From a virus (taxonomy: Duplodnaviria > Caudoviricetes), in IMG/VR virus record IMGVR_UViG_3300014205_000010, positions 27,321-91,320 of that record: 64,000 bases of DNA; one strand, given 5' to 3'. Shown piece by piece: positions 13,090 to 27,475 of the stretch. Within the stretch, counting starts at the first letter, position 1. The number at the start of each line of letters is the position of its first letter. The position numbers were made by a program, and so were the translations under genes. Under the pieces are notes generated by a model. That model was not told the origin of the DNA, searched no databases, and was given only the letters and a program-made list of their open reading frames with translations.

Positions 13090-13381
13090 ACATATAATCT
13101 GGCTTTACATAGAATTTGTTAATATCGTAGTCGGCAAGAAAAATCATAACACTACCATTGCCATGACGCCACACTGCCTTGGATCCCTGTCCAACATCCT
13201 CAATTTTAACTAGACCAGTGTTATCAATCACATCTATACCATGCTTGGTATAAAGTTTCATGATAATAAACGGACCTTCAATTGCTCCAGTATCAGCCTT
13301 CTTGAATAAGTGCATACCCATCTTGACTTCGCCAATTTTATTTAACATTCTGTATCTACTAGCCATTGAAATTCTCCTCAA
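13052..13381 (-). CDS. Hypothetical protein
   Basis: ORF coupled to neighbours. Confidence 0.5.
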   Translation of the reverse strand: MRRISMASRYRMLNKIGEVKMGMHLFKKADTGAIEGPFIIMKLYTKHGIDVIDNTGLVKIEDVGQGSKAVWRHGNGSVMIFLADYDINKFYVKPDYMYEVEPDAETTVE

Positions 13382-14447
13382 TTAATTTTCTTTTTTCAGT
13401 TCGATCTAAAGAACCGAACCAATCCATTATTCTGAGATTTTTCGCATACTCAGCGTACGGTCTGAGATCAATAAATTGTTTTCCTCGTCTAGGATTGGAT
13501 TCTCTTTGTAGGGTTCGTCTTGCACTTGCTCCGAGCCACTCTCCCATGAAGCAGGTGACAGCCTTCCCAGCCTGTGCATATTGATTTCCCACGTTTCCGA
13601 TAAATTCGAATTCATCTCCGTAACCAAAGATTCGAGCTTCTTCACGAACAGTGAGAAATCTGTCAAAGCTTGGGTGGATAATTGTAGGGCCGCCGGTGAT
13701 TGTGGGCCCAGGAGATCTCCAACTTGCTCTCCTAGTAGGACCGAAAGGTTGACCATATAGATTATCTCTAGCTGAGGGGAGTCTTCTCCAGATTTCCGAG
13801 GCTGTAAATCCAGGTGGAATATACTTCGCGATGGAAGCGACTTGCCCTGTGAATTTAGTTTTGTCATGATTCAGAAATTCTCCTTCTGCTATAAATTGTA
13901 AATCCCAGATAGCATCTTTTATTGTTGGAACTGGCATTGGATTAAATTTTGCCAGCTTAAAGTCGTATTTACTAGCTATATAATGAAATCTCGGTCTTAT
14001 CTGTGGGCTACCATGTAATACGCTATCGGAGAACAGATAAGTATGCTGATACTCATGGAAAATACTATCCAGGTCGGCGAGTATATCTTGACCTTTATTC
14101 CATAGGCCAGGAACAGACTCCATAATAAAAATATCGGTATCCAAAGCCATGGCAATATCAGCACACTCATACATACAGTTATTAATTGGGTCGTGTGAAC
14201 CACGATTAGCACCCATAACTGAAAAGGCTGAACATGGAGGATTTGCCACGACCAGATTAATATTTTTTGGTAAATAACTACCCCATTTATTCTTCGGATA
14301 TATTATCGGAAATGAAAAATTATGCCTGGCAGTCTCAAGGCCAAGACCAAGATTTTCGTACATGGCTTTTACTTCAAAACCAGCTCTTTGTATCCCAATT
14401 ATAAACGAGCCAGCAAAAATATGGACACCTACCGCTGTTAAGCTCAT
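13359..14447 (-). CDS. C5-cytosine DNA methyltransferase-like enzyme with atypical motifs
   Basis: Motif IV NPPCSAFS, VI ESVP, VIII PQIRPR, IX RFLTVREEARIFGY, X QAGKAV; motif I HIFAGSF. Confidence 0.85.
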   Translation of the reverse strand: MSLTAVGVHIFAGSFIIGIQRAGFEVKAMYENLGLGLETARHNFSFPIIYPKNKWGSYLPKNINLVVANPPCSAFSVMGANRGSHDPINNCMYECADIAMALDTDIFIMESVPGLWNKGQDILADLDSIFHEYQHTYLFSDSVLHGSPQIRPRFHYIASKYDFKLAKFNPMPVPTIKDAIWDLQFIAEGEFLNHDKTKFTGQVASIAKYIPPGFTASEIWRRLPSARDNLYGQPFGPTRRASWRSPGPTITGGPTIIHPSFDRFLTVREEARIFGYGDEFEFIGNVGNQYAQAGKAVTCFMGEWLGASARRTLQRESNPRRGKQFIDLRPYAEYAKNLRIMDWFGSLDRTEKRKLIEENFNG

Positions 14448-15022: not shown

Positions 15023-16047
15023 ATAGCAGCCATTACCTGTTTTCTTATGTCAATTAAAGCTGCTCTATCTGATTTTAAGAAATCTGCAAATGCTTTGGCT
15101 CCTCTGTAATTGATACCATCATATTTATAGAATGCCCCTGACTGAGTAATAATGCCTGTAACACGCCCAGCTGCAATAATATCTTTGATTCTATCGATTT
15201 TGCCGTTGTAATAGAAATCAAATTCGGCTTCTTTTCCATGAGGGCCTCCGACTTTACATTTTCTTACTCTAGCCTTTACTGTATGACCAACCTGTGCTTC
15301 TTTGTTTTTTGGATTAACTGGAACAGATAGATACGATGGTATATCATTCGGTTTTATCCATTCGCCAGCCCTGAGTTCAATCCTGAGTGAAGCGAAGAAC
15401 TTAAGGCCTCTACCACCTGGTTGAAAATCTCCTGCTCTGGGCCCACCGATAGTACTTCTATTTTGATTAATTATGACGATTGCTGTGTTGTGGTTTCTTG
15501 CATTAATTCTCTTGAATCCGAGGTTATTAACTCTAGCATCAACTGCCATGTGCGTTTGCATGTCATTATCTGTGATGGCCATAGGAGCGAACGCGGTAAG
15601 AGAATCAAGAATGATGAGGTCAACTGGCTCAAAGTCATGATACTCCTTGCTCCTTGGATTACCTAGATTAATAGCCTTGAATAGGATATCAAATCCTTCT
15701 TCAGATTCTGCAATTTGAGATACAACCAACCTAGATACATCTACACCTAGAGTAGTCATCCATGCTGAATCGAAAGATTTTTCTGCATCTACCCATAAGC
15801 ATGTCATTTTCTTTTTCTGAGCTTCTACGATAATTTTGGCTGCGATAGCTGATTTACCAGCTGACTCATTGCCAAATATCTCGGTTGTCTTACCCATTGG
15901 GATTCCACCATTAGTTGCCCAATCTAAAAAGAGAGATCCAGTTGATATTCTATTTACCTCTTGCTTTTGCCAATCTGATCCAAGGAAAATCGAATCGGCC
16001 CCGTGTTCTTTTTGTATGATTGCTATGAGGTCGCTAATACTTGTCAT
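15019..16047 (-). CDS. recA: RecA/UvsX-like recombinase
   Basis: ISTGSLFLD, Walker A GNESAGKS, DAEKS, IILDS, INQNR, PGGRGLKFFASLRI. Confidence 0.95.
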   Translation of the reverse strand: MTSISDLIAIIQKEHGADSIFLGSDWQKQEVNRISTGSLFLDWATNGGIPMGKTTEIFGNESAGKSAIAAKIIVEAQKKKMTCLWVDAEKSFDSAWMTTLGVDVSRLVVSQIAESEEGFDILFKAINLGNPRSKEYHDFEPVDLIILDSLTAFAPMAITDNDMQTHMAVDARVNNLGFKRINARNHNTAIVIINQNRSTIGGPRAGDFQPGGRGLKFFASLRIELRAGEWIKPNDIPSYLSVPVNPKNKEAQVGHTVKARVRKCKVGGPHGKEAEFDFYYNGKIDRIKDIIAAGRVTGIITQSGAFYKYDGINYRGAKAFADFLKSDRAALIDIRKQVMAAI

Positions 16048-16616
16048 GATTTTTTAGGCTTAGGAAGCATATCTAACGGAGTCCATTCAGCTCGAGTTTT
16101 TCCATATCTTCCAGTGTATTGAGATTCAGTAAGACCAACATTATGGAAAGTAATTTGAGCTATTCTCTCTCCGACTTCAATTGATACGTCAAAGTCAGAA
16201 TCATTAGTCATTTCCATAGTCCAGCGAGATACATAACCAACATCGCCAAGACCAGCACATTTACACACCGAGAGACAGTGTCTACCTGTCGTGGATTTAG
16301 CTTTCATCTCAGTGGTAATGATATTCATACCACCAATGAATTCCTCGGTGTGGCAGAGGATAGTCTCACGCGCTCTGACAACGATCAACTCATCCGCCTT
16401 TATAGGCTTATCCCACATTAAATTGAAAGCATCAGAGGTGCCATAGCGAATTGTAGGCCTTCCAGCATAATATTGTTTTTGCCTAAAAAACCATTCTCCG
16501 AGTCTAACGTCGTATGAATTTGAATTTAACTGGCTATTAAAATATGGGTCAATCAGAATATTTCCTTCTTCCATTTGACCCTTGATTTCTGCATCACTTA
16601 ACATTGAGTGCCTCAT
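16044..16616 (-). CDS. dcd: dCTP deaminase
   Basis: MLSDAEI, NSYDVRLG, AKSTTGR, DVGY..RWTMEM, GERIAQI, YTGRY. Confidence 0.85.
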   Translation of the reverse strand: MRHSMLSDAEIKGQMEEGNILIDPYFNSQLNSNSYDVRLGEWFFRQKQYYAGRPTIRYGTSDAFNLMWDKPIKADELIVVRARETILCHTEEFIGGMNIITTEMKAKSTTGRHCLSVCKCAGLGDVGYVSRWTMEMTNDSDFDVSIEVGERIAQITFHNVGLTESQYTGRYGKTRAEWTPLDMLPKPKKS

Positions 16617-19236
16617 TCTTTCTGAGAATTACAAAAGCTCCTGCTTCTTCTAATGCAGCAACAGCTCTTGAATTTAATTTTCTCTTGACTACTCTTGATT
16701 CGAAATCTTCGAAAGAAATAAATGGTCTCTTAGTTATAATTTCTTCTAGACCAGCTGGTCCAACTCCTTTTACTGTTCCTAATCCGAACCTTATAGAGCC
16801 ATTGTCAAGAGTATATGATTTACCGGATTTATTAATATCAACTCTTCTGATTGGAATTCCTAATCTCTTTGCTTCAGTAACTAACTTATATTGTTTTTCT
16901 TCTTCTATTGTATGGGCAAGTGAAGCAGACATAAACTCAGCTGGATAATGAACCTTCATATACATAGTCCAGTATGATATGAAAGCATAAGCGCATGAAT
17001 GAGATCGGTTAAATCCATATCTTGCAAACGAAAGAATCTGATCCCATAAGGCAGAAGCATCTACTTGATCCATGTTATTCTGTACTGCGCCTCTAACGAA
17101 TTTCTTTCTGAGAATATTTAATTCATCATCTCTGTGTAATTTAACTTGTTCTGACTTTTTAACAATATCTTTTCTGAGTTTTTCTGCATCCGCAAGAGAC
17201 ATATTAGCAAGTTTAGAAGCTAACTCTGTCATCTGTTCTTGATATGTAATAACCCCGTAAGTTCTTCCTAAGACCTGTTCAACAGCAGGGTGCTTGAATT
17301 CATATGTTTCTCTACCAAGTTTTCTTGAGGCGTAGACTTTGTCCATACCCACGTCTCTAGGACCTGGCCTACAGAGAGCACCCGCTGCAATGAGGTCTTC
17401 AAACTCTGTGGGTCTGATGTCTCGCAAAGTTCTTCCAGCGGCATATGCCTCAAACTGGAAAATACCAGTGTAATTACCCCTCTGGAATTCTTTATAGACT
17501 TTACGGTCATCGATTGGATAATCATACACAGAAGTATTTGTAAGCTGTTCACATTCTCTGAGAATTGAGAGGGTGTTAAGTCCAAGAAGGTCAAACTTAA
17601 TAAAACCCATTTCTGATAATTCTTTTGATTCTCCTTCCTGCCAAGCAGACAATAAATCTCCACCGTATCTGATAACGGGGAGAGTTCCATTCGCATCGAC
17701 AGCAAATCCGGCGGCGTGACGGCCCATTTGCCTGATAGAGCCGTGTAGTCTATCCAGACTTTCTCTAATCTGTGGATTTCCATTAAAAATGATTTGAACT
17801 TCAGGGACATTATCTGCTATTTCCTCAATAGTCTCAGCCCAATCTGGTAAGGCTGGCAGTCTAACATCTATCTCCCAAACTCGTATCAAATCTCTGATGA
17901 GGTTTCTATTCTGAAATGTTCCATAAGCAGGAATTTGAAATACTTTTTCTCCATACCTACTTTTTAGTCTATCCATGACTTCGACTCTTCTGTCTCTAGG
18001 AAAGTCTACATCAATATCTGGATACCCTATTCTATCTTTGGTTAGAAATCGCTCAAACATTAAATCGAATTTTATCGGATCTATCGTAGTAATAGAGAGT
18101 AACCAAGATACGATACTGCCAGCAGCAGAACCACGACCTGGACCGACGAATATATCATTTCTCTTAGCCCAGTGAATAAGATCTGCAACGACCAGGAAAT
18201 AGTTTGCGAAACCTTTTTCATTGATTACACCTAGTTCTCTGTCCAATCTATCTTTATATACAGAAAACTCATCAGCTGGTATAATGCCTTCGCCACTCCA
18301 AATGTTTAGCTTCTTATAGCAGAATCCCTTAAGCCATTCTTCTGGTGTTTTATCTTTTACGAATGGTGGAATAGGCAAATTAGGTTCTTCAATTGGACTG
18401 AATTTTTCTATTCTATCAGCTATTAAATCTGTTTCTTGAATAGCCTGTAATGCTCTATCTTCAGATATTCCACCATATTTTTTGGCCCAAACAAGCATTT
18501 CTTTTTCTGTTTTAAGATATAAACCATGAGTAGATTCCCAACCATCACCTCTTTCAGAGGCAATAGTAGTTTTACGAATAATCGCGAGAAGAGTTGTGCG
18601 ATATTTTGCCCAACCTTTTCTTGGATAATGACAATCATTCGTAGCTACAAGAGGAATACCACTCTTGTCAGACAACTTTATCAGAAACTTATTAATTGTT
18701 TGTTGCTGTTCTAATTCGTTAAATTGGATCTCGAGATAAAGTCGGTCTCCAAAGATAGTTCTGAGTCTCTTGAATCGCTGAATAGCCAACTCTCTATCGC
18801 GTTGTCGAATGAGCCCATCTCCAATTGGGCCTTGAACGCATCCAGTGAGGCATATAATACCTTCTTTGTACTGTTCAAGGACTGACCAGTCAATTCTTGG
18901 CCTATTATAGAAACCTGTAATGTGACCTTCATTTGTCGCCTTAATTAAATTGTGATATCCTTCTCTGTTTATAGCCAACAGAGTAAGATGCATTCTTTCT
19001 TCGCCAGGAGATTTAACTAACCTATCTTCTACGAAATAAACTTCACAACCGAAAATTGGTTTAATATCTTGTTGATTACAGGCTAACCAAAATCTAGGAA
19101 ATCCTCCTAGAGTTCCATGATCTGTAATAGCTAGGGCTTTTTGGCCAAATTCAGTGGCTGTCTTAGCCCATTCTTCTACCCGGCAGATAGCATCACCGAT
19201 AGAATATTCTGTATGAACATGTAGGTTAGTTACCAT
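16594..19236 (-). CDS. dnaE: DNA polymerase III alpha subunit (family C) with intact PHP domain and shortened C-terminus
   Basis: HVHTEYS, TDHG, NDCHY, GRGSAAGS, PDIDVDF, KFDLLGL, YGFNRSHS. Confidence 0.95.
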   Translation of the reverse strand: MVTNLHVHTEYSIGDAICRVEEWAKTATEFGQKALAITDHGTLGGFPRFWLACNQQDIKPIFGCEVYFVEDRLVKSPGEERMHLTLLAINREGYHNLIKATNEGHITGFYNRPRIDWSVLEQYKEGIICLTGCVQGPIGDGLIRQRDRELAIQRFKRLRTIFGDRLYLEIQFNELEQQQTINKFLIKLSDKSGIPLVATNDCHYPRKGWAKYRTTLLAIIRKTTIASERGDGWESTHGLYLKTEKEMLVWAKKYGGISEDRALQAIQETDLIADRIEKFSPIEEPNLPIPPFVKDKTPEEWLKGFCYKKLNIWSGEGIIPADEFSVYKDRLDRELGVINEKGFANYFLVVADLIHWAKRNDIFVGPGRGSAAGSIVSWLLSITTIDPIKFDLMFERFLTKDRIGYPDIDVDFPRDRRVEVMDRLKSRYGEKVFQIPAYGTFQNRNLIRDLIRVWEIDVRLPALPDWAETIEEIADNVPEVQIIFNGNPQIRESLDRLHGSIRQMGRHAAGFAVDANGTLPVIRYGGDLLSAWQEGESKELSEMGFIKFDLLGLNTLSILRECEQLTNTSVYDYPIDDRKVYKEFQRGNYTGIFQFEAYAAGRTLRDIRPTEFEDLIAAGALCRPGPRDVGMDKVYASRKLGRETYEFKHPAVEQVLGRTYGVITYQEQMTELASKLANMSLADAEKLRKDIVKKSEQVKLHRDDELNILRKKFVRGAVQNNMDQVDASALWDQILSFARYGFNRSHSCAYAFISYWTMYMKVHYPAEFMSASLAHTIEEEKQYKLVTEAKRLGIPIRRVDINKSGKSYTLDNGSIRFGLGTVKGVGPAGLEEIITKRPFISFEDFESRVVKRKLNSRAVAALEEAGAFVILRKNEALNVK

Positions 19237-19272: not shown

Positions 19273-20217
19273 TTAATACCATTCTAGATGTTTTAACAAA
19301 ATTGAGTATGACCCACAAATAGAAGTATCTATTGTAATATCAGGATTTCTTCTAATCCTGTAATATAGAAGAGTAGATAGCATGTCTTTAACAGTATCAT
19401 CTTCATCTATTGATAGTATTTCCTCAAGAGTCTTGTGCAATTCTTCAGTAGTAAAATCTGTTTTTCGTATTTTATACTCAAGAGTTGATACTCTGTGTAT
19501 GTTTGAAATTAGAGACGTCTTTGTGCTTTCTTGAAAACTAATGATTTTTGGTTCTTCATCTACTATCTGATTAAGAATTTTTACATTACTCTCATATGCA
19601 TGAAGCGAGCCACATATATGAGTATATGTTCCTACACCAAGTGATGTTTGATTTGCTACAATTTCTAGAAGTGAAGCCCAATGATAGAAATCATATGGAA
19701 GGCCTAGATATATATCTTGAGATCTAACGTATACTACAAGATCTAACCATTCACCTCGTGGCAAGAAATGTAACATGATATTACATGGAAAGTCCTTCGT
19801 ATTAACCGTCTGATCTCTTGGCTGATAAATTGTAGCAACTGCTTGTCTTGTACTCTTATCTAGGTTTATTTTATTGATGATGCTCGGTATCTGTCTCATC
19901 AACCTTGGGCCATAAGCTCCATGTAGGGTTCTTCCATCATCAGAAAACTCCCACATCTTCTTGTTATAAAAGCCAATCATGTCTGCTCTGTTATTTTGTG
20001 TAGTTATCCACAAATATTCTGCAATCATGAAGTATGGATTTATTCTTCTGACTTTATTAGTTATAATTTTACTAGTCGGATTTTCCACAACTATAGATGT
20101 AGGCCCGATGTCTAATGTTGGAATACCTCTAGGAGAATATCTTGCTCCATGATCTAGAATATATTTTATTATTTCTGGATATATTGTTTCAATGTCCTCT
20201 GCATCAAATACTTCCAA
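19273..20217 (-). CDS. Thymidylate-synthase-family enzyme, dCMP-type (hydroxymethylase/methylase/hydroxylase)
   Basis: GAYGPR, DFPCN catalytic Cys, RSQD...GLPYD (Asp at the ThyA Asn177 position), SLHAYE. Confidence 0.85.
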   Translation of the reverse strand: MEVFDAEDIETIYPEIIKYILDHGARYSPRGIPTLDIGPTSIVVENPTSKIITNKVRRINPYFMIAEYLWITTQNNRADMIGFYNKKMWEFSDDGRTLHGAYGPRLMRQIPSIINKINLDKSTRQAVATIYQPRDQTVNTKDFPCNIMLHFLPRGEWLDLVVYVRSQDIYLGLPYDFYHWASLLEIVANQTSLGVGTYTHICGSLHAYESNVKILNQIVDEEPKIISFQESTKTSLISNIHRVSTLEYKIRKTDFTTEELHKTLEEILSIDEDDTVKDMLSTLLYYRIRRNPDITIDTSICGSYSILLKHLEWY

Positions 20218-21334: not shown

Positions 21335-21854
21335 TAGAATTTATCCAGCCTATAATTCTATCAATTTTATCTGTAGTTGGTTTAAAAGTCATATAATCTA
21401 GGCCTTCTTCAAAACCAAGTTTTTTCAACATTGTATTATACTCTGTTATGATAGGTATAATATATTCTGTTGGTTTATCCTCTGCTCTCCATCTTTCAAC
21501 TATAGTTTCTATTTCTTCTATAACCAGAATGAGCTTAATAACATCCTTGTTCTGTCTCATTTGTTTTTCATACCAAGGAAAATCACAAGCTCGGCCAAAT
21601 ACCTTGGCATAAACTAATTCACTGAATGAAAACCTATCTAGAATAAAATCTTTATATGCATTTACTTCTCTGGCAAGTTTAATTATTTTTTCACAGTCTT
21701 CTTTGCCTCTTCGAAATTCTCTTATAGTTTCCCATCCATTTTCTGAAGGCCTTGGGACTGTTAATACTTTAAAATTATATGGATCACCAGAAAGTGTTGT
21801 CAGAAGTGTAGTTTTGCCTACGCGATCTATTCCTTCAAGTACAAATGCGGTCAT
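21303..21854 (-). CDS. dNMP kinase (thymidylate kinase-like)
   Basis: P-loop LEGIDRVGKTT; ILDRFSFSELVY. Confidence 0.85.
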   Translation of the reverse strand: MTAFVLEGIDRVGKTTLLTTLSGDPYNFKVLTVPRPSENGWETIREFRRGKEDCEKIIKLAREVNAYKDFILDRFSFSELVYAKVFGRACDFPWYEKQMRQNKDVIKLILVIEEIETIVERWRAEDKPTEYIIPIITEYNTMLKKLGFEEGLDYMTFKPTTDKIDRIIGWINSNGKNSVRSAD

Positions 21855-22951
21855 AGAAAAGTTGCTCTCCTAGAAGATAATTGTTCTGCCTCAGCATTCA
21901 TTTTATAGTATCTGGATGGTCCACTACTACACATTCTACATATCTCGTTTTGATCATTAATATGTTCAGCAGCTATTCTTTCAATGTTTTCTTTTGTCAT
22001 TATCCGTAACAACGGAGTATCATATATATTTCCGTATGAGTACTTCATATCTCGCTGATCGAAAGGAAGATTATCTCCGACGAGATAGCAACAAGGAAAT
22101 ACTGAACCATCAGTATCTATAAAAGCATGCAGATATGGAATAACACAGTTTTTTGGGTCTACTGGAGATACTTTGTCTCCATTTGTTATAATTTGGCGTA
22201 CGTTAGTATATCTGTCTATCCAATCACTAAAATCTGAGGTATTACCAAATAAATTTGCCAGGTCATAGCGAAGTTTAAGTACCTGTTGTTCTGTAACTAC
22301 GTTATAGTCATGAACAAAATACCCATAAATTGGTATCTGATTATCATAGCATTTTTTTACCATAAGCGGAAATTCTTCTATGTTTTCTGACTGTATGGTG
22401 TACTGAACTCTAACCTTATCTAAACCAGCTTCGCTATAGAGTCGCACGAATTCATTCTTAACAAAAGCTGCATTTACAAAAGCAGTTTCATATGAATTTG
22501 GGTGTGAACCTCTAATTTTTGCCCAAGTTTGTGGTGTAGCTCCGTCTATAGAAAACCTGATAAATCCGAATTTAGTCAAATCCAGATCAACATATCTATT
22601 GGTAGAATTATCAAGACCAGTAGTAAACATCCCAAGTTTTATCTCTGGTTTAATGTGATCAATGAGAGCTTTGAGATGAACATAATTCATTGGGTCTCCA
22701 CCAGATAAAACAATAGTTTCAAGATCTGGTAGGCTATTAAGCTCTCTTACGGCTAATTCAACTTGAATGACATTTTTGCTACCGGCTTGAATAGCTGCCC
22801 ATTCTGGTTTATGACACATAATACATTTTTGTGGGCATGTATTCGTGACATTAAGCTGAACTGAAACAAGGTGTGGTTCTTGTCTTTTTATCCATGATTC
22901 ATACATAGTAACATATTGCGGCATTATTCTATTATAACCACCTATATACAA
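21851..22951 (-). CDS. Radical SAM enzyme with SPASM/Twitch domain
   Basis: CPQKCIMC, SGGDP, FSIDG, C..PY...IDTDGSVFPCC...GNI...CRMC. Confidence 0.9.
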   Translation of the reverse strand: MYIGGYNRIMPQYVTMYESWIKRQEPHLVSVQLNVTNTCPQKCIMCHKPEWAAIQAGSKNVIQVELAVRELNSLPDLETIVLSGGDPMNYVHLKALIDHIKPEIKLGMFTTGLDNSTNRYVDLDLTKFGFIRFSIDGATPQTWAKIRGSHPNSYETAFVNAAFVKNEFVRLYSEAGLDKVRVQYTIQSENIEEFPLMVKKCYDNQIPIYGYFVHDYNVVTEQQVLKLRYDLANLFGNTSDFSDWIDRYTNVRQIITNGDKVSPVDPKNCVIPYLHAFIDTDGSVFPCCYLVGDNLPFDQRDMKYSYGNIYDTPLLRIMTKENIERIAAEHINDQNEICRMCSSGPSRYYKMNAEAEQLSSRRATFL

Positions 22952-22960
22952 GATGTAAAT

Positions 22961-23641
22961 TTATATTCTTGAAGAAATTGTATTCATGATGGCTTTATAA
23001 GCTCTTTCGTTTTCAGTTACGAATTCTAATTTCTTCATAGCAGCTATAGTTCTATCAGTATGTCTGTATCTTTCATATGCTGGATGATACATTGTCATGT
23101 ATAATCCACTATAATATTCTCTTGACATGTATAGAATTTTGTTTCTAATTCTGTCTGTTGTTATAAATGGATCTTTTTGGTGTGTTTGATCAAAAAACCA
23201 TGAATGCGCCAAATTTCCCAGGGATAAAATCGCCCAGGGATCTATTAGTCTGATTTGATCTTCAAGCCACTCCCTGCAATTATATACTTCTTCATGGGTA
23301 GGCAATGAGTTATCTGGAGTTCTACACTTTATGATATTTGTTAGTGCCCAGACAGTATCCTCTGAAAACCCTTGCTTTAACCACTCGCCAATAGGGGCCT
23401 CCATGAGACCCCTTGCATATCCTTGCTGGAACCTGCGCCACTGTTCTTCTTCTGCGTATGAATTGTCATCCCAACCAGAAGCTCTTTTACTTAACTGTCC
23501 TGGATTTTGTGCAACAACCAAAATCTTGGCATCTTTTGGAAAAAACCCAGGCATGCTAGCGAATTGAAACCTAGGACAAGTCCTACATTTCCATATTCGC
23601 TGATTTAACTCTTTCAACGGCGATTGGGTTACCTTCGGCAA
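22961..23641 (-). CDS. Uracil-DNA-glycosylase superfamily protein (family 4/5-like, Fe-S)
   Basis: CRTC, VAQNPG, TNIIKCRTPDN...C, YHPAY. Confidence 0.8.
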   Translation of the reverse strand: MPKVTQSPLKELNQRIWKCRTCPRFQFASMPGFFPKDAKILVVAQNPGQLSKRASGWDDNSYAEEEQWRRFQQGYARGLMEAPIGEWLKQGFSEDTVWALTNIIKCRTPDNSLPTHEEVYNCREWLEDQIRLIDPWAILSLGNLAHSWFFDQTHQKDPFITTDRIRNKILYMSREYYSGLYMTMYHPAYERYRHTDRTIAAMKKLEFVTENERAYKAIMNTISSRI

Positions 23642-23972
23642 CTTGTCTATCCCAGTTCATTCTAATTTTGGTGAGAATCCACTCTGTAGCTTCATCAGCT
23701 TCTATTCCAAGGATGAGAAGCATGTTAACAGAGAAGATGAAGCAATCAACGGCTTCCTCGATTTGTTTGTCTCGATTGTGAGGCCGCGCTCTCTTGGACA
23801 CTTTCCAATTGAATTCATCTCTATACTCGAATGCTTCTCTTGCTAGGCCCGTAGAAAGATAATCTGCGATCTTGTCGAGATATTGAGGATCCTCGCTGAC
23901 TTTTTTGAAGTCAACGAAGAGAGCCTCAAATTCTTTCTGGACCTTGAAGATTTCTCCAAGGCCTTCAGCCAT
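23583..23972 (-). CDS. All-alpha dimeric dUTPase/dCTPase (MazG-like)
   Basis: REAFEY..E.NWK...EEAVDCFIF. Confidence 0.8.
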   Translation of the reverse strand: MAEGLGEIFKVQKEFEALFVDFKKVSEDPQYLDKIADYLSTGLAREAFEYRDEFNWKVSKRARPHNRDKQIEEAVDCFIFSVNMLLILGIEADEATEWILTKIRMNWDRQVAEGNPIAVERVKSANMEM

Positions 23973-27297: not shown

Positions 27298-27475
27298 TAA
27301 AGGCTTTTTTCAGGCCGTCTCTAGCGCTACTGCAGTACTTAGCTAGAACATTGTGACACTCTGTTAAACCACGTTTCTTATCTTCAAATTCTTCCTCAAC
27401 TGATGCTTGAATTTCTATGAAAGAATAATCAGCTATCTTATAATGTTCTGTTCTTGTTATTTTAATCACAGGCAT
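27275..27475 (-). CDS. Hypothetical protein
   Basis: ORF in operon with an AAGGA RBS. Confidence 0.55.
   Translation of the reverse strand: MPVIKITRTEHYKIADYSFIEIQASVEEEFEDKKRGLTECHNVLAKYCSSARDGLKKAFNEGEFDL

Follow-up and report, generated by a model that had tools for sequence, protein, structure and literature searches.

A Twitch-type radical SAM enzyme linked to a glycosyltransferase in predicted cytosine-replacement cassettes of metagenomic phages: a candidate remodeller of a DNA sugar

Hypermodifications of phage DNA govern the access of restriction enzymes, CRISPR nucleases and sequencing chemistry, and epigenetics owes some of its tools to them. Described routes include the hydroxymethylcytosine (hmC) pathway of the T-even phages, and an analogous set of activities is known from the biosynthesis of the free nucleoside antibiotics mildiomycin and blasticidin S in Streptomyces, where a CMP hydroxymethylase (MilA), a cytosylglucuronate synthase (MilC/BlsD) and a radical S-adenosylmethionine (SAM) enzyme (MilG/BlsE) are combined. 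The sugar-directed radical SAM enzymes DesII, BlsE and BtrN are not known to carry an N-terminal peptide-recognition domain. Radical SAM chemistry has also been connected to phage DNA, namely in the case of gp53 of Pseudomonas phage M6, an isomerase of N-alpha-glycinylthymidine that its authors presented in 2021 as the first demonstrated case of a radical SAM enzyme that acts in installing a modification on DNA (PMC8989533). Here we describe a radical SAM gene (21851..22951, minus strand) in a stretch of 64,000 nucleotides, referred to below as the window, that spans positions 27,321 to 91,320 of the IMG/VR virus record IMGVR_UViG_3300014205_000010 (Duplodnaviria; Caudoviricetes) and constitutes the right-hand 64 kb of that complete 91,320-bp record with direct terminal repeats. 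The gene lies in what is probably a cassette for the replacement of cytosine by glycosylated hmC, and its conserved context points, on a balance that tips modestly in favour, to an accessory enzyme that remodels a sugar, be it the nucleoside diphosphate (NDP)-sugar donor or the sugar once attached to hmC.

The assignment to the radical SAM class is based on profiles, motifs and a structural model. Pfam recognises both Radical_SAM (PF04055; 5.7e-10, 40 bits at a cut-off of 29.5) and SPASM (PF13186; 3.4e-11, 43.7 bits at a cut-off of 21.5) in the window protein, and eight cysteines, three N-terminal and five C-terminal, are invariant across 38 family members that are 22-63% identical, which is far beyond chance. 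A preliminary description, made from the letters of the sequence only, had named a CxxxCxxC motif, a GGDP motif and a Cys-rich SPASM/Twitch C-terminus, all of which are borne out by the Pfam scores and the invariant residues. Residues are numbered according to the 357-residue protein (P0002), whose start at the ATG at 22924 is likely the true one, since the N-termini of the orthologues all fall at the Met ten codons into the open reading frame (ORF) that opens with TTG and a GGTGG box is found 12 nt upstream of this ATG. The invariant arrangement C260-x12-G273-x4-C278 fits the CX9-15GX4C opening of SPASM and Twitch domains. A full SPASM domain contains seven or eight cysteines, including a CX2CX5CX3C block, and holds two auxiliary clusters. 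The window protein has five conserved C-terminal cysteines and lacks that block, so that its pattern falls short of the two-cluster type and fits a single auxiliary cluster of the Twitch type.

To place the gene in a comparative context, loci were collected from IMG/VR and JGI metagenomes, and their ORFs were compared with the window proteins by BLAST and by means of purpose-built hidden Markov models. A glycosyltransferase (GT) gene and a gene for a putative deoxynucleoside monophosphate (dNMP) kinase were found at most two genes away from the radical SAM gene in five lineages, i.e. the window and the comparison loci L012/L013, L039, L040 and L041/L042/L044. The gene order is dTMP kinase, MazG, radical SAM, GT, kinase, a fusion of the DNA polymerase III (PolIII) alpha subunit with a uracil-DNA glycosylase (UDG), and a U32-family protein in L012; radical SAM, GT, kinase in L013; kinase, UDG, radical SAM, GT, thymidylate synthase (TS) homologue in L039; MazG, radical SAM, kinase, second radical SAM, GT, TS homologue, second GT, PolIII alpha in L040; and PolIII alpha-UDG fusion, radical SAM, GT, MazG, a kinase-dCMP deaminase fusion, U32 in L041, L042 and L044. 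The radical SAM proteins of the other lineages are 23-30% identical to the window protein, and the stop and start codons within the radical SAM-GT-kinase groups often overlap. In addition, four close GT orthologues and four radical SAM orthologues come from contigs of identical size (89784, 65726, 34653 and 11033 bp), their linkage being read from that match only. Gene order strongly argues that the three genes travel together across deep divergence. In the 40-kb phage record that contains L040 (7214-13410; the same locus as L057), the kinase and a TS homologue of the dCMP-hydroxymethylase type are surrounded by a pair of distinct radical SAM/SPASM genes and by two GTs, one of them Exostosin/GT47-like.

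The constant neighbour of the radical SAM gene is the GT and not the TS homologue, to which it is non-adjacent in the window, L039 and L040. Moreover, within the stretches collected, the gene that would activate the base alternates between a TS homologue (window, L039, L040) and a U32-family protein (L012, L041-44). The U32 gene closes the operon; it was identified at 11807-12889 of L012 (PF01136, 4.8e-11; no sequence match in the PDB), at 11255-12364 of L041, whose product is 36% identical, and likewise in L042 and L044. The U32 proteins TrhP, RlhA and UbiU/V are oxygen-independent hydroxylases, with RNA pyrimidine C5 among their targets (PMC6599085, PMC6747719, PMC10990095), and by analogy the phage proteins may give rise, without oxygen, to 5-hydroxycytosine or 5-hydroxyuracil as the base in DNA that accepts the sugar. 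Since the hydroxyl group has more than one supplier whereas the radical SAM enzyme and the GT are kept throughout, the substrate of the radical SAM enzyme is more likely a sugar than the hydroxymethyl group.

A second line of evidence comes from a related cassette with a variable position. The GT of the type found in L040 has hundreds of relatives, and in 34 IMG/VR loci (L052-L085) the order is MazG, kinase, a slot, GT and TS homologue; the MazG-like gene is kept in 30 of these 34, as it is in the cassettes of L012, L040 and L041. All 22 TS homologues with a readable motif in these sister loci have the Asp typical of dCMP (cytosine) specificity. About half of the sister loci have a shorter related radical SAM protein of ~285 residues with a different auxiliary Cys pattern in the slot, and about nine have a 365-residue protein there, for which no sequence match was found in the PDB and whose nearest Atlas clusters with a family include T4 beta-glucosyltransferase-like ones, which we regard as a lead only. 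In L078 a UDP-galactopyranose mutase gene (3e-40) directly follows the radical SAM gene, and in some loci the kinase gene directly adjoins that of the GT, the slot being empty. Because the content of the slot is variable or nil, the core cassette would work without a radical SAM enzyme. Judged by gene order, a radical SAM gene can be present or left out, at a position which may also take up an enzyme for the donor sugar or what may be a further transferase. A parallel is offered by published phage clusters in which the DNA GT may require an NDP-sugar epimerase encoded next to it (bioRxiv 10.1101/2023.12.21.572611).

The AlphaFold2 (AF2) model of the radical SAM protein has a pLDDT of 89.7. Its best fold neighbours are tied (SkfB, Z 22.7; DesII, 22.5; BlsE, 22.4) and are followed by SuiB (21.4), CteB (21.3), MoaA, the anaerobic sulfatase-maturating enzyme (anSME) and PqqE (19-21), viperins (17) and BtrN (15.8). 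The spore photoproduct lyase is not in the list, which is not decisive. Of the three tied at the top, DesII and BlsE have substrates in which a hexose is linked to a nucleotide or a nucleoside. The sequence identity of DesII, BlsE and BtrN to the window protein amounts to 13-18%, with profile E-values of 5e-13 for BlsE (core only) and 4e-5 for the Twitch domain of BtrN. To our knowledge, there is no single sequence family that carbohydrate radical SAM enzymes of the BtrN, DesII and BlsE type have in common. The modelled fold confirms the radical SAM class and not the substrate.

With respect to its distribution, the family appears from these searches to be small and phage-restricted. Some ten close homologues (55-62% identity), all metagenomic, were retrieved among 5.8 billion proteins, an exhaustive profile search among 1.84 billion representatives recovered 39 below 1e-30 and 767 below 1e-10, and the one match among 185,579 species genomes, weak and partial, was to an Endomicrobiaceae metagenome-assembled genome. 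Neither the radical SAM protein (tblastn) nor the 16-kb block (megablast) matched any of 50,697 phage records; more distant family members gave weak matches there, and the family is found in no cultured phage. The Atlas search yielded generic radical SAM clusters alone, including a viral one with 938 members, and the distant profile matches are generic radical SAM/SPASM proteins. Among these distant relatives (P0059-P0115, P0073, P0094, P0066) are fusions of ~660 residues with an unannotated N-terminal region of ~290; fusions to a TIR, HD-CE or TPR domain also occur and hint at proteins of defence systems. A high-GC viral contig (L001:2916-6859) carries ThyX, a short-chain dehydrogenase, a family member of 23% identity and an FkbM-type methyltransferase, with no GT in its 7.3 kb.

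Several described classes were considered for the window protein and are disfavoured. The anaerobic ribonucleotide reductase (RNR) activase models TIGR02826, TIGR02491 and TIGR02495 score 30, 23.7 and 21.6 bits at cut-offs of 152, 126 and 131, and no NrdD (NRDD domain) was found in the complete 91-kb genome. NrdG is a small protein of ~150-190 residues without SPASM and needs a co-encoded NrdD. The NCBIfam models for maturases of ribosomally made peptides with post-translational modifications (RiPPs) score 28.7 versus 625 (StsB), 19.4 versus 340 (PapB) and 21.7 versus 450 bits (DynA), and the AF2 model contains no RiPP recognition element (RRE) or other N-terminal peptide-recognition domain, the first core strand starting at residue 21 with ~20 residues before it. 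No QueE model occurs among the 25 listed of 30 NCBIfam matches; other deazaguanine-pathway genes were not searched for. An isomerase of the M6 gp53 type was likewise set aside, as tblastn against the 50,697 phage records gave no match and the neighbourhood comprises a GT, a dNMP kinase and a TS homologue of the cytosine type, whereas an enzyme of the gp53 type would be expected beside aGPT-Pplase, 5-HMUDK and a PLP enzyme. The preliminary description had proposed that clustering with RNR activases, QueE or peptide maturases would speak against sugar tailoring; the scores below cut-off, the listed NCBIfam matches, which contain no QueE model, and the absence of NrdD, an RRE and a precursor peptide give no sign of it. 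In fact, the genes between 19273 and 24853 overlap or are spaced by at most 36 nt and every ORF of at least 20 codons there overlaps a larger gene, therefore leaving no precursor-peptide gene, in line with what had been noted before. The same holds for the earlier placement of the enzyme inside a DNA-modification block, its neighbours being the TS homologue, the GT4-like GT, the kinase, the family-4-UDG-like protein and the MazG/dUTPase_2-like protein (Table 1).

Table 1. Features of the radical SAM gene and of its neighbours (window positions; functions as predicted)
Feature	Position	Strand	Details
C5-cytosine methyltransferase-like	13359-14447	-	PF00145, 8.6e-27
HNH/NUMOD endonuclease; RecA	between the methyltransferase-like gene (13359-14447) and the dCTP deaminase-like gene	-	
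dCTP deaminase-like	16044..16616	-	Pfam DCD, 7e-30; TIGR02274, 88.5 bits
PolIII alpha	16594-19236	-	
TS homologue, predicted dCMP 5-hydroxymethylase	19273..20217	-	best PDB match MilA CMP hydroxymethylase, 1e-26
GT-B/GT4-fold glycosyltransferase, 376 aa	20204..21334	-	weak Pfam GT4 match; AF2 pLDDT 86.8
P-loop dNMP kinase-like, 183 aa	21303..21854	-	weak Thymidylate_kin and PHROG 761 matches; overlaps radical SAM stop by 4 nt
Radical SAM/Twitch enzyme	21851..22951	-	366 aa from TTG at 22951; 357 aa from ATG at 22924
Twitch-like auxiliary Fe-S domain, C260/C278/C279/C329/C332	21929..22147	-	Pfam SPASM; BtrN Twitch profile match, 4e-5
SGGDP, residues 74-78, 'GGE'-type SAM-binding motif	22691..22705	-	G75, G76 and P78 invariant
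CxxxCxxC, C30-x3-C34-x2-C37	22814..22837	-	predicted site of SAM-cleaving [4Fe-4S] cluster; invariant in 38 sequences
Family-4 UDG-like	22961..23641	-	Pfam UDG, 4e-16; NCBIfam family 4; directly upstream of radical SAM gene
MazG/dimeric-dUTPase-like NTP pyrophosphatase, candidate dCTPase	23583..23972	-	
SSB-like, primase, DnaB, SF2 helicase	beyond the MazG-like gene	-	
NDP-glucose 4,6-dehydratase-like short-chain dehydrogenase/reductase (SDR)	56214..57242	-	TIGR01181, 1.4e-84; GDP_Man_Dehyd, 1e-54

The specificity of TS homologues can be read from few residues: Asp in place of N177 of ThyA indicates cytosine, Asp or Glu at the position of L143 indicates the hydroxymethyl type and a retained D169 speaks against a 5-hydroxy-dCMP synthase (PMC13326640). 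The window protein has Asp at both the N177 and the L143 position and has kept D169 (motifs 'KDfPC', 'RSqD' and 'PyD'), and on these grounds it is predicted to be of the hydroxymethyl-dCMP type; the dUMP hydroxymethylase of SPO1 has the expected Asn at N177 in the same alignment. In full-length superposition the window GT is closest to sucrose-phosphate synthase (Z 32.0) and to MshA, BshA, PimA and PglA (28-30), and neither this GT nor the L040-type GT had a tblastn match in the 50,697 phage records. In L041 (10314-11258) the kinase and a dCMP deaminase domain (PF00383, 1.7e-22) form one protein, and because of this fusion the kinase would act on mononucleotides, as does T4 gp1. The UDG-like domain, a separate gene in the window, is fused to PolIII alpha in L012 (7197-11792) and in L041 (4778-7945), for which reason we consider it probably a part of the replisome and not of the sugar chemistry. 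Taken at the level of sequence, the cassette has the components of a hmC pathway of the T-even type, DNA being the presumed acceptor of the GT, and the phage probably replaces cytosine with glycosylated hmC. A homologue of C5-cytosine methyltransferases shares the leftward block of this phage, in which hmC is predicted to take the place of C.

A potential source of an unusual sugar was found elsewhere in the window, where a ThyX gene (1.9e-37) is followed, with overlap, by the dTDP-glucose 4,6-dehydratase-like SDR gene (together 55558-57242, minus strand). The phage is probably able to make an NDP-4-keto-6-deoxyhexose, and the SDR may supply this sugar to the cassette. The dehydratase (PF16363) was not found in four related records, each of which is 10-80% complete.

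What was computed here are the fold, the motifs, the linkage of the genes and the signature residues of the neighbouring proteins; the route that we propose, with all of its catalytic steps, its DNA target and its sugar, is what we infer. The MazG-like NTPase and the dCTP deaminase would drain the dCTP pool, the TS homologue would make 5-hydroxymethyl-dCMP (hm-dCMP), the P-loop kinase would phosphorylate the latter, PolIII alpha would put the hydroxymethylated nucleotide into phage DNA, and the GT4-fold transferase, presumed to be of the retaining type, would place the sugar of an NDP-sugar on the hydroxymethyl group. The radical SAM enzyme would form a 5'-deoxyadenosyl radical, which would take a hydrogen from one of the carbons of the sugar, either in the NDP-sugar before transfer or in the sugar attached to the base. 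If an electron then passed to the auxiliary cluster, the sugar could be dehydrogenated, dehydrated or decarboxylated, in the manner of BtrN, DesII and BlsE; if instead a conserved Cys (one of the invariant CC pair) returned a hydrogen, the sugar could be epimerised. The latter chemistry, with a Cys as the hydrogen donor, would resemble that of NeoN and HygY. Either outcome would result in a non-standard sugar on DNA, and the DNA of the phage probably bears a sugar or a base that has not yet been described.

At which of the two levels the enzyme would act can be weighed to some extent. Action on the DNA-bound sugar itself (on hmC, or on 5-hydroxycytosine in the cassettes with U32), yielding a keto-, deoxy-, epimeric, decarboxylated or base-cross-linked sugar, is a tentative possibility that we consider doubtful. 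The acidic character of the protein (see below) and a slot that is shared with a UDP-sugar mutase lean slightly to action at the level of the donor. A landfill metagenome is the only public run that contains the stretch and may be the source sample; such a habitat would suit an oxygen-sensitive enzyme. No public RNA run containing the stretch is listed.

The idea of a sugar- or base-tailoring enzyme was already put forward in the preliminary description and is supported in part: the link to the GT and hmC cassette is well supported, by synteny in five lineages, by the slot in the sister loci and by the fold of DesII and BlsE. A number of points weigh against sugar remodelling on DNA and are collected here. 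The fold scores do not part the sugar enzymes from the peptide maturases SkfB, SuiB and CteB, and no curated family was reached, the best NCBIfam match being a tungsten-enzyme maturase with 59 bits at a cut-off of 380. The radical SAM proteins are mildly acidic (isoelectric point 5.6-6.9, median 6.1-6.9), with a median of 6.4 for most of the partner GTs, which speaks weakly against direct binding of DNA. Most of the comparison records are fragments, and the absences of the TS homologue, U32 and the dehydratase from them are not firm. Finally, two glycan-related loci, discussed below, belong on the same side.

An alternative puts the chemistry on the base or nucleotide: the 5-hydroxymethyl group, be it in hm-dCMP or in the hmC of DNA, might be oxidised to a formyl group, or a C-C bond might be formed at the exocyclic carbon, and a new base would thereby be offered to the GT or to other enzymes. 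The enzyme anSME turns the CH2OH group of Ser into an aldehyde, and it is a close fold relative of the window protein (Z 19-20). The radical SAM gene moreover lies among genes of nucleotide metabolism, the distant relative in L001 sits beside ThyX without a GT in the 7.3 kb, and the only radical SAM enzyme known from DNA hypermodification, M6 gp53, acts in DNA on an appendage of the base (PMC8989533). Nevertheless, we consider this alternative unlikely: the radical SAM gene persists in the U32 cassettes without a TS homologue, so that a hydroxymethyl substrate could not be universal, and its constant partner is the GT, the TS gene being non-adjacent wherever the two co-occur in the window, L039 and L040.

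Sugar remodelling could also concern a glycan other than that of DNA, i.e. one on virion proteins or on an envelope polymer of the host, in which case the position within the replication module would be incidental. The phage indeed has a cluster of glycan genes among its structural genes (G000:C1:6375-17661, outside of the window; L049, L050), with an O-methyltransferase of the RMNT/CmcI type, two more methyltransferases, three GT1 and two GT2 enzymes, and this cluster may serve to glycosylate virion proteins or to extend a DNA glycan. The dTDP-glucose 4,6-dehydratase-like gene and the acidity of the radical SAM and GT proteins are compatible with such a role. In a 40-kb podovirus (MW202801.1, 19272-24303; L051) a distant relative is paired with a GT directly after the major capsid gene, in the order radical SAM overlapping GT, PhyH-type dioxygenase, methyltransferase, NodB-like deacetylase and second GT; its protein is, however, ~25% identical over 72% of the query. 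In all true family members with enough flanking sequence the pair is embedded, often with translational coupling, between genes for a dCMP hydroxymethylase or U32 protein, a dNMP kinase, MazG and PolIII alpha, and NTPase, kinase, GT and TS homologue correspond in their logic to gp56, gp1, GT and gp42 of T4, which renders a non-DNA role rather improbable.

A role in activating or maturing another protein (as an RNR activase, or as a maturase of the anSME or RiPP type) or in making a cofactor (as a QueE/MoaA-like enzyme) is highly improbable: a weak likeness to the NCBIfam models for tungsten-enzyme maturase, NrdG, MoaA and sactipeptide maturases and the presence of SkfB, SuiB and CteB among the top fold matches are outweighed by scores far below the cut-offs (NrdG 21-30 versus 126-152 bits; tungsten-enzyme maturase 59 versus 380), by the lack of NrdD in the 91-kb genome, of an RRE and of space for a peptide gene, by the lack of a QueE model among the listed NCBIfam matches, and by a synteny with GT and kinase that has no role in such systems.

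If the tie between a Twitch-type radical SAM enzyme and a DNA GT is real, radical sugar chemistry would be added to the repertoire acting on DNA, within a module that is small (four to five genes) and that full-text searches of the literature found described in no paper. A further implication would be that phages living in anoxic habitats possess a toolkit of their own that works without oxygen, made up of radical SAM enzymes in the present cassette and of U32-type hydroxylases in sister cassettes. Direct action on the DNA-bound sugar, should it prove true, would constitute the first radical SAM chemistry on a DNA glycan and an oxygen-independent route to an undescribed DNA base.

A comparison with the described systems indicates which parts of the cassette are familiar. 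Like the T-even pathway (T4 gp56, gp42, gp1 and the alpha- and beta-GTs), the window has an NTP pyrophosphatase, a cytosine-type TS homologue, a dNMP kinase and an NDP-sugar-dependent transferase in one block. It differs in that the transferase is of the GT4 fold, unrelated to those of T4 and unmatched in the 50,697 phage records, in that the replicase is PolIII alpha, and in the addition of a radical SAM/Twitch enzyme, for which there is no T-even counterpart. With the C5-MT/5mYOX(TET)/GT clusters of 'subclass II' (bioRxiv 10.1101/2023.12.21.572611) it shares the presence of a DNA GT beside an enzyme for the donor sugar, in combinations that vary across metagenomic phages. In contrast to those clusters, hmC would here originate from a TS homologue before replication and not from TET, and a radical SAM enzyme takes the place of the SDR epimerase as the partner. 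M6 gp53 is alike in being a radical SAM enzyme within a phage cluster for DNA hypermodification. It is, however, similar to the spore photoproduct lyase and concerned with an amino-acid appendage of thymidine, whereas the window protein is SPASM-type and found in a cytosine and sugar context; a SPASM-type domain is not reported for gp53 (PMC8989533).

The carbohydrate radical SAM enzymes DesII (a deaminase/dehydrogenase of TDP-4-amino-4,6-dideoxyglucose), BlsE (cytosylglucuronate decarboxylase) and BtrN (a Twitch dehydrogenase) agree with the window protein in fold and, in the case of BtrN, in the pattern of cysteines, and the GT-rich context would suit a sugar enzyme. They differ from it in that none matches at the level of a family, while SkfB, SuiB and CteB score equally. 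The pathways of mildiomycin and blasticidin S, finally, offer the same trio of a cytosine-specific TS homologue, a GT and a radical SAM enzyme acting on the attached sugar, with MilA being the best PDB match of the window TS homologue. In the window, unlike in those pathways, the trio is accompanied by a phage dNMP kinase, a dCTPase-like protein and a replicase, which points in the direction of incorporation into DNA.

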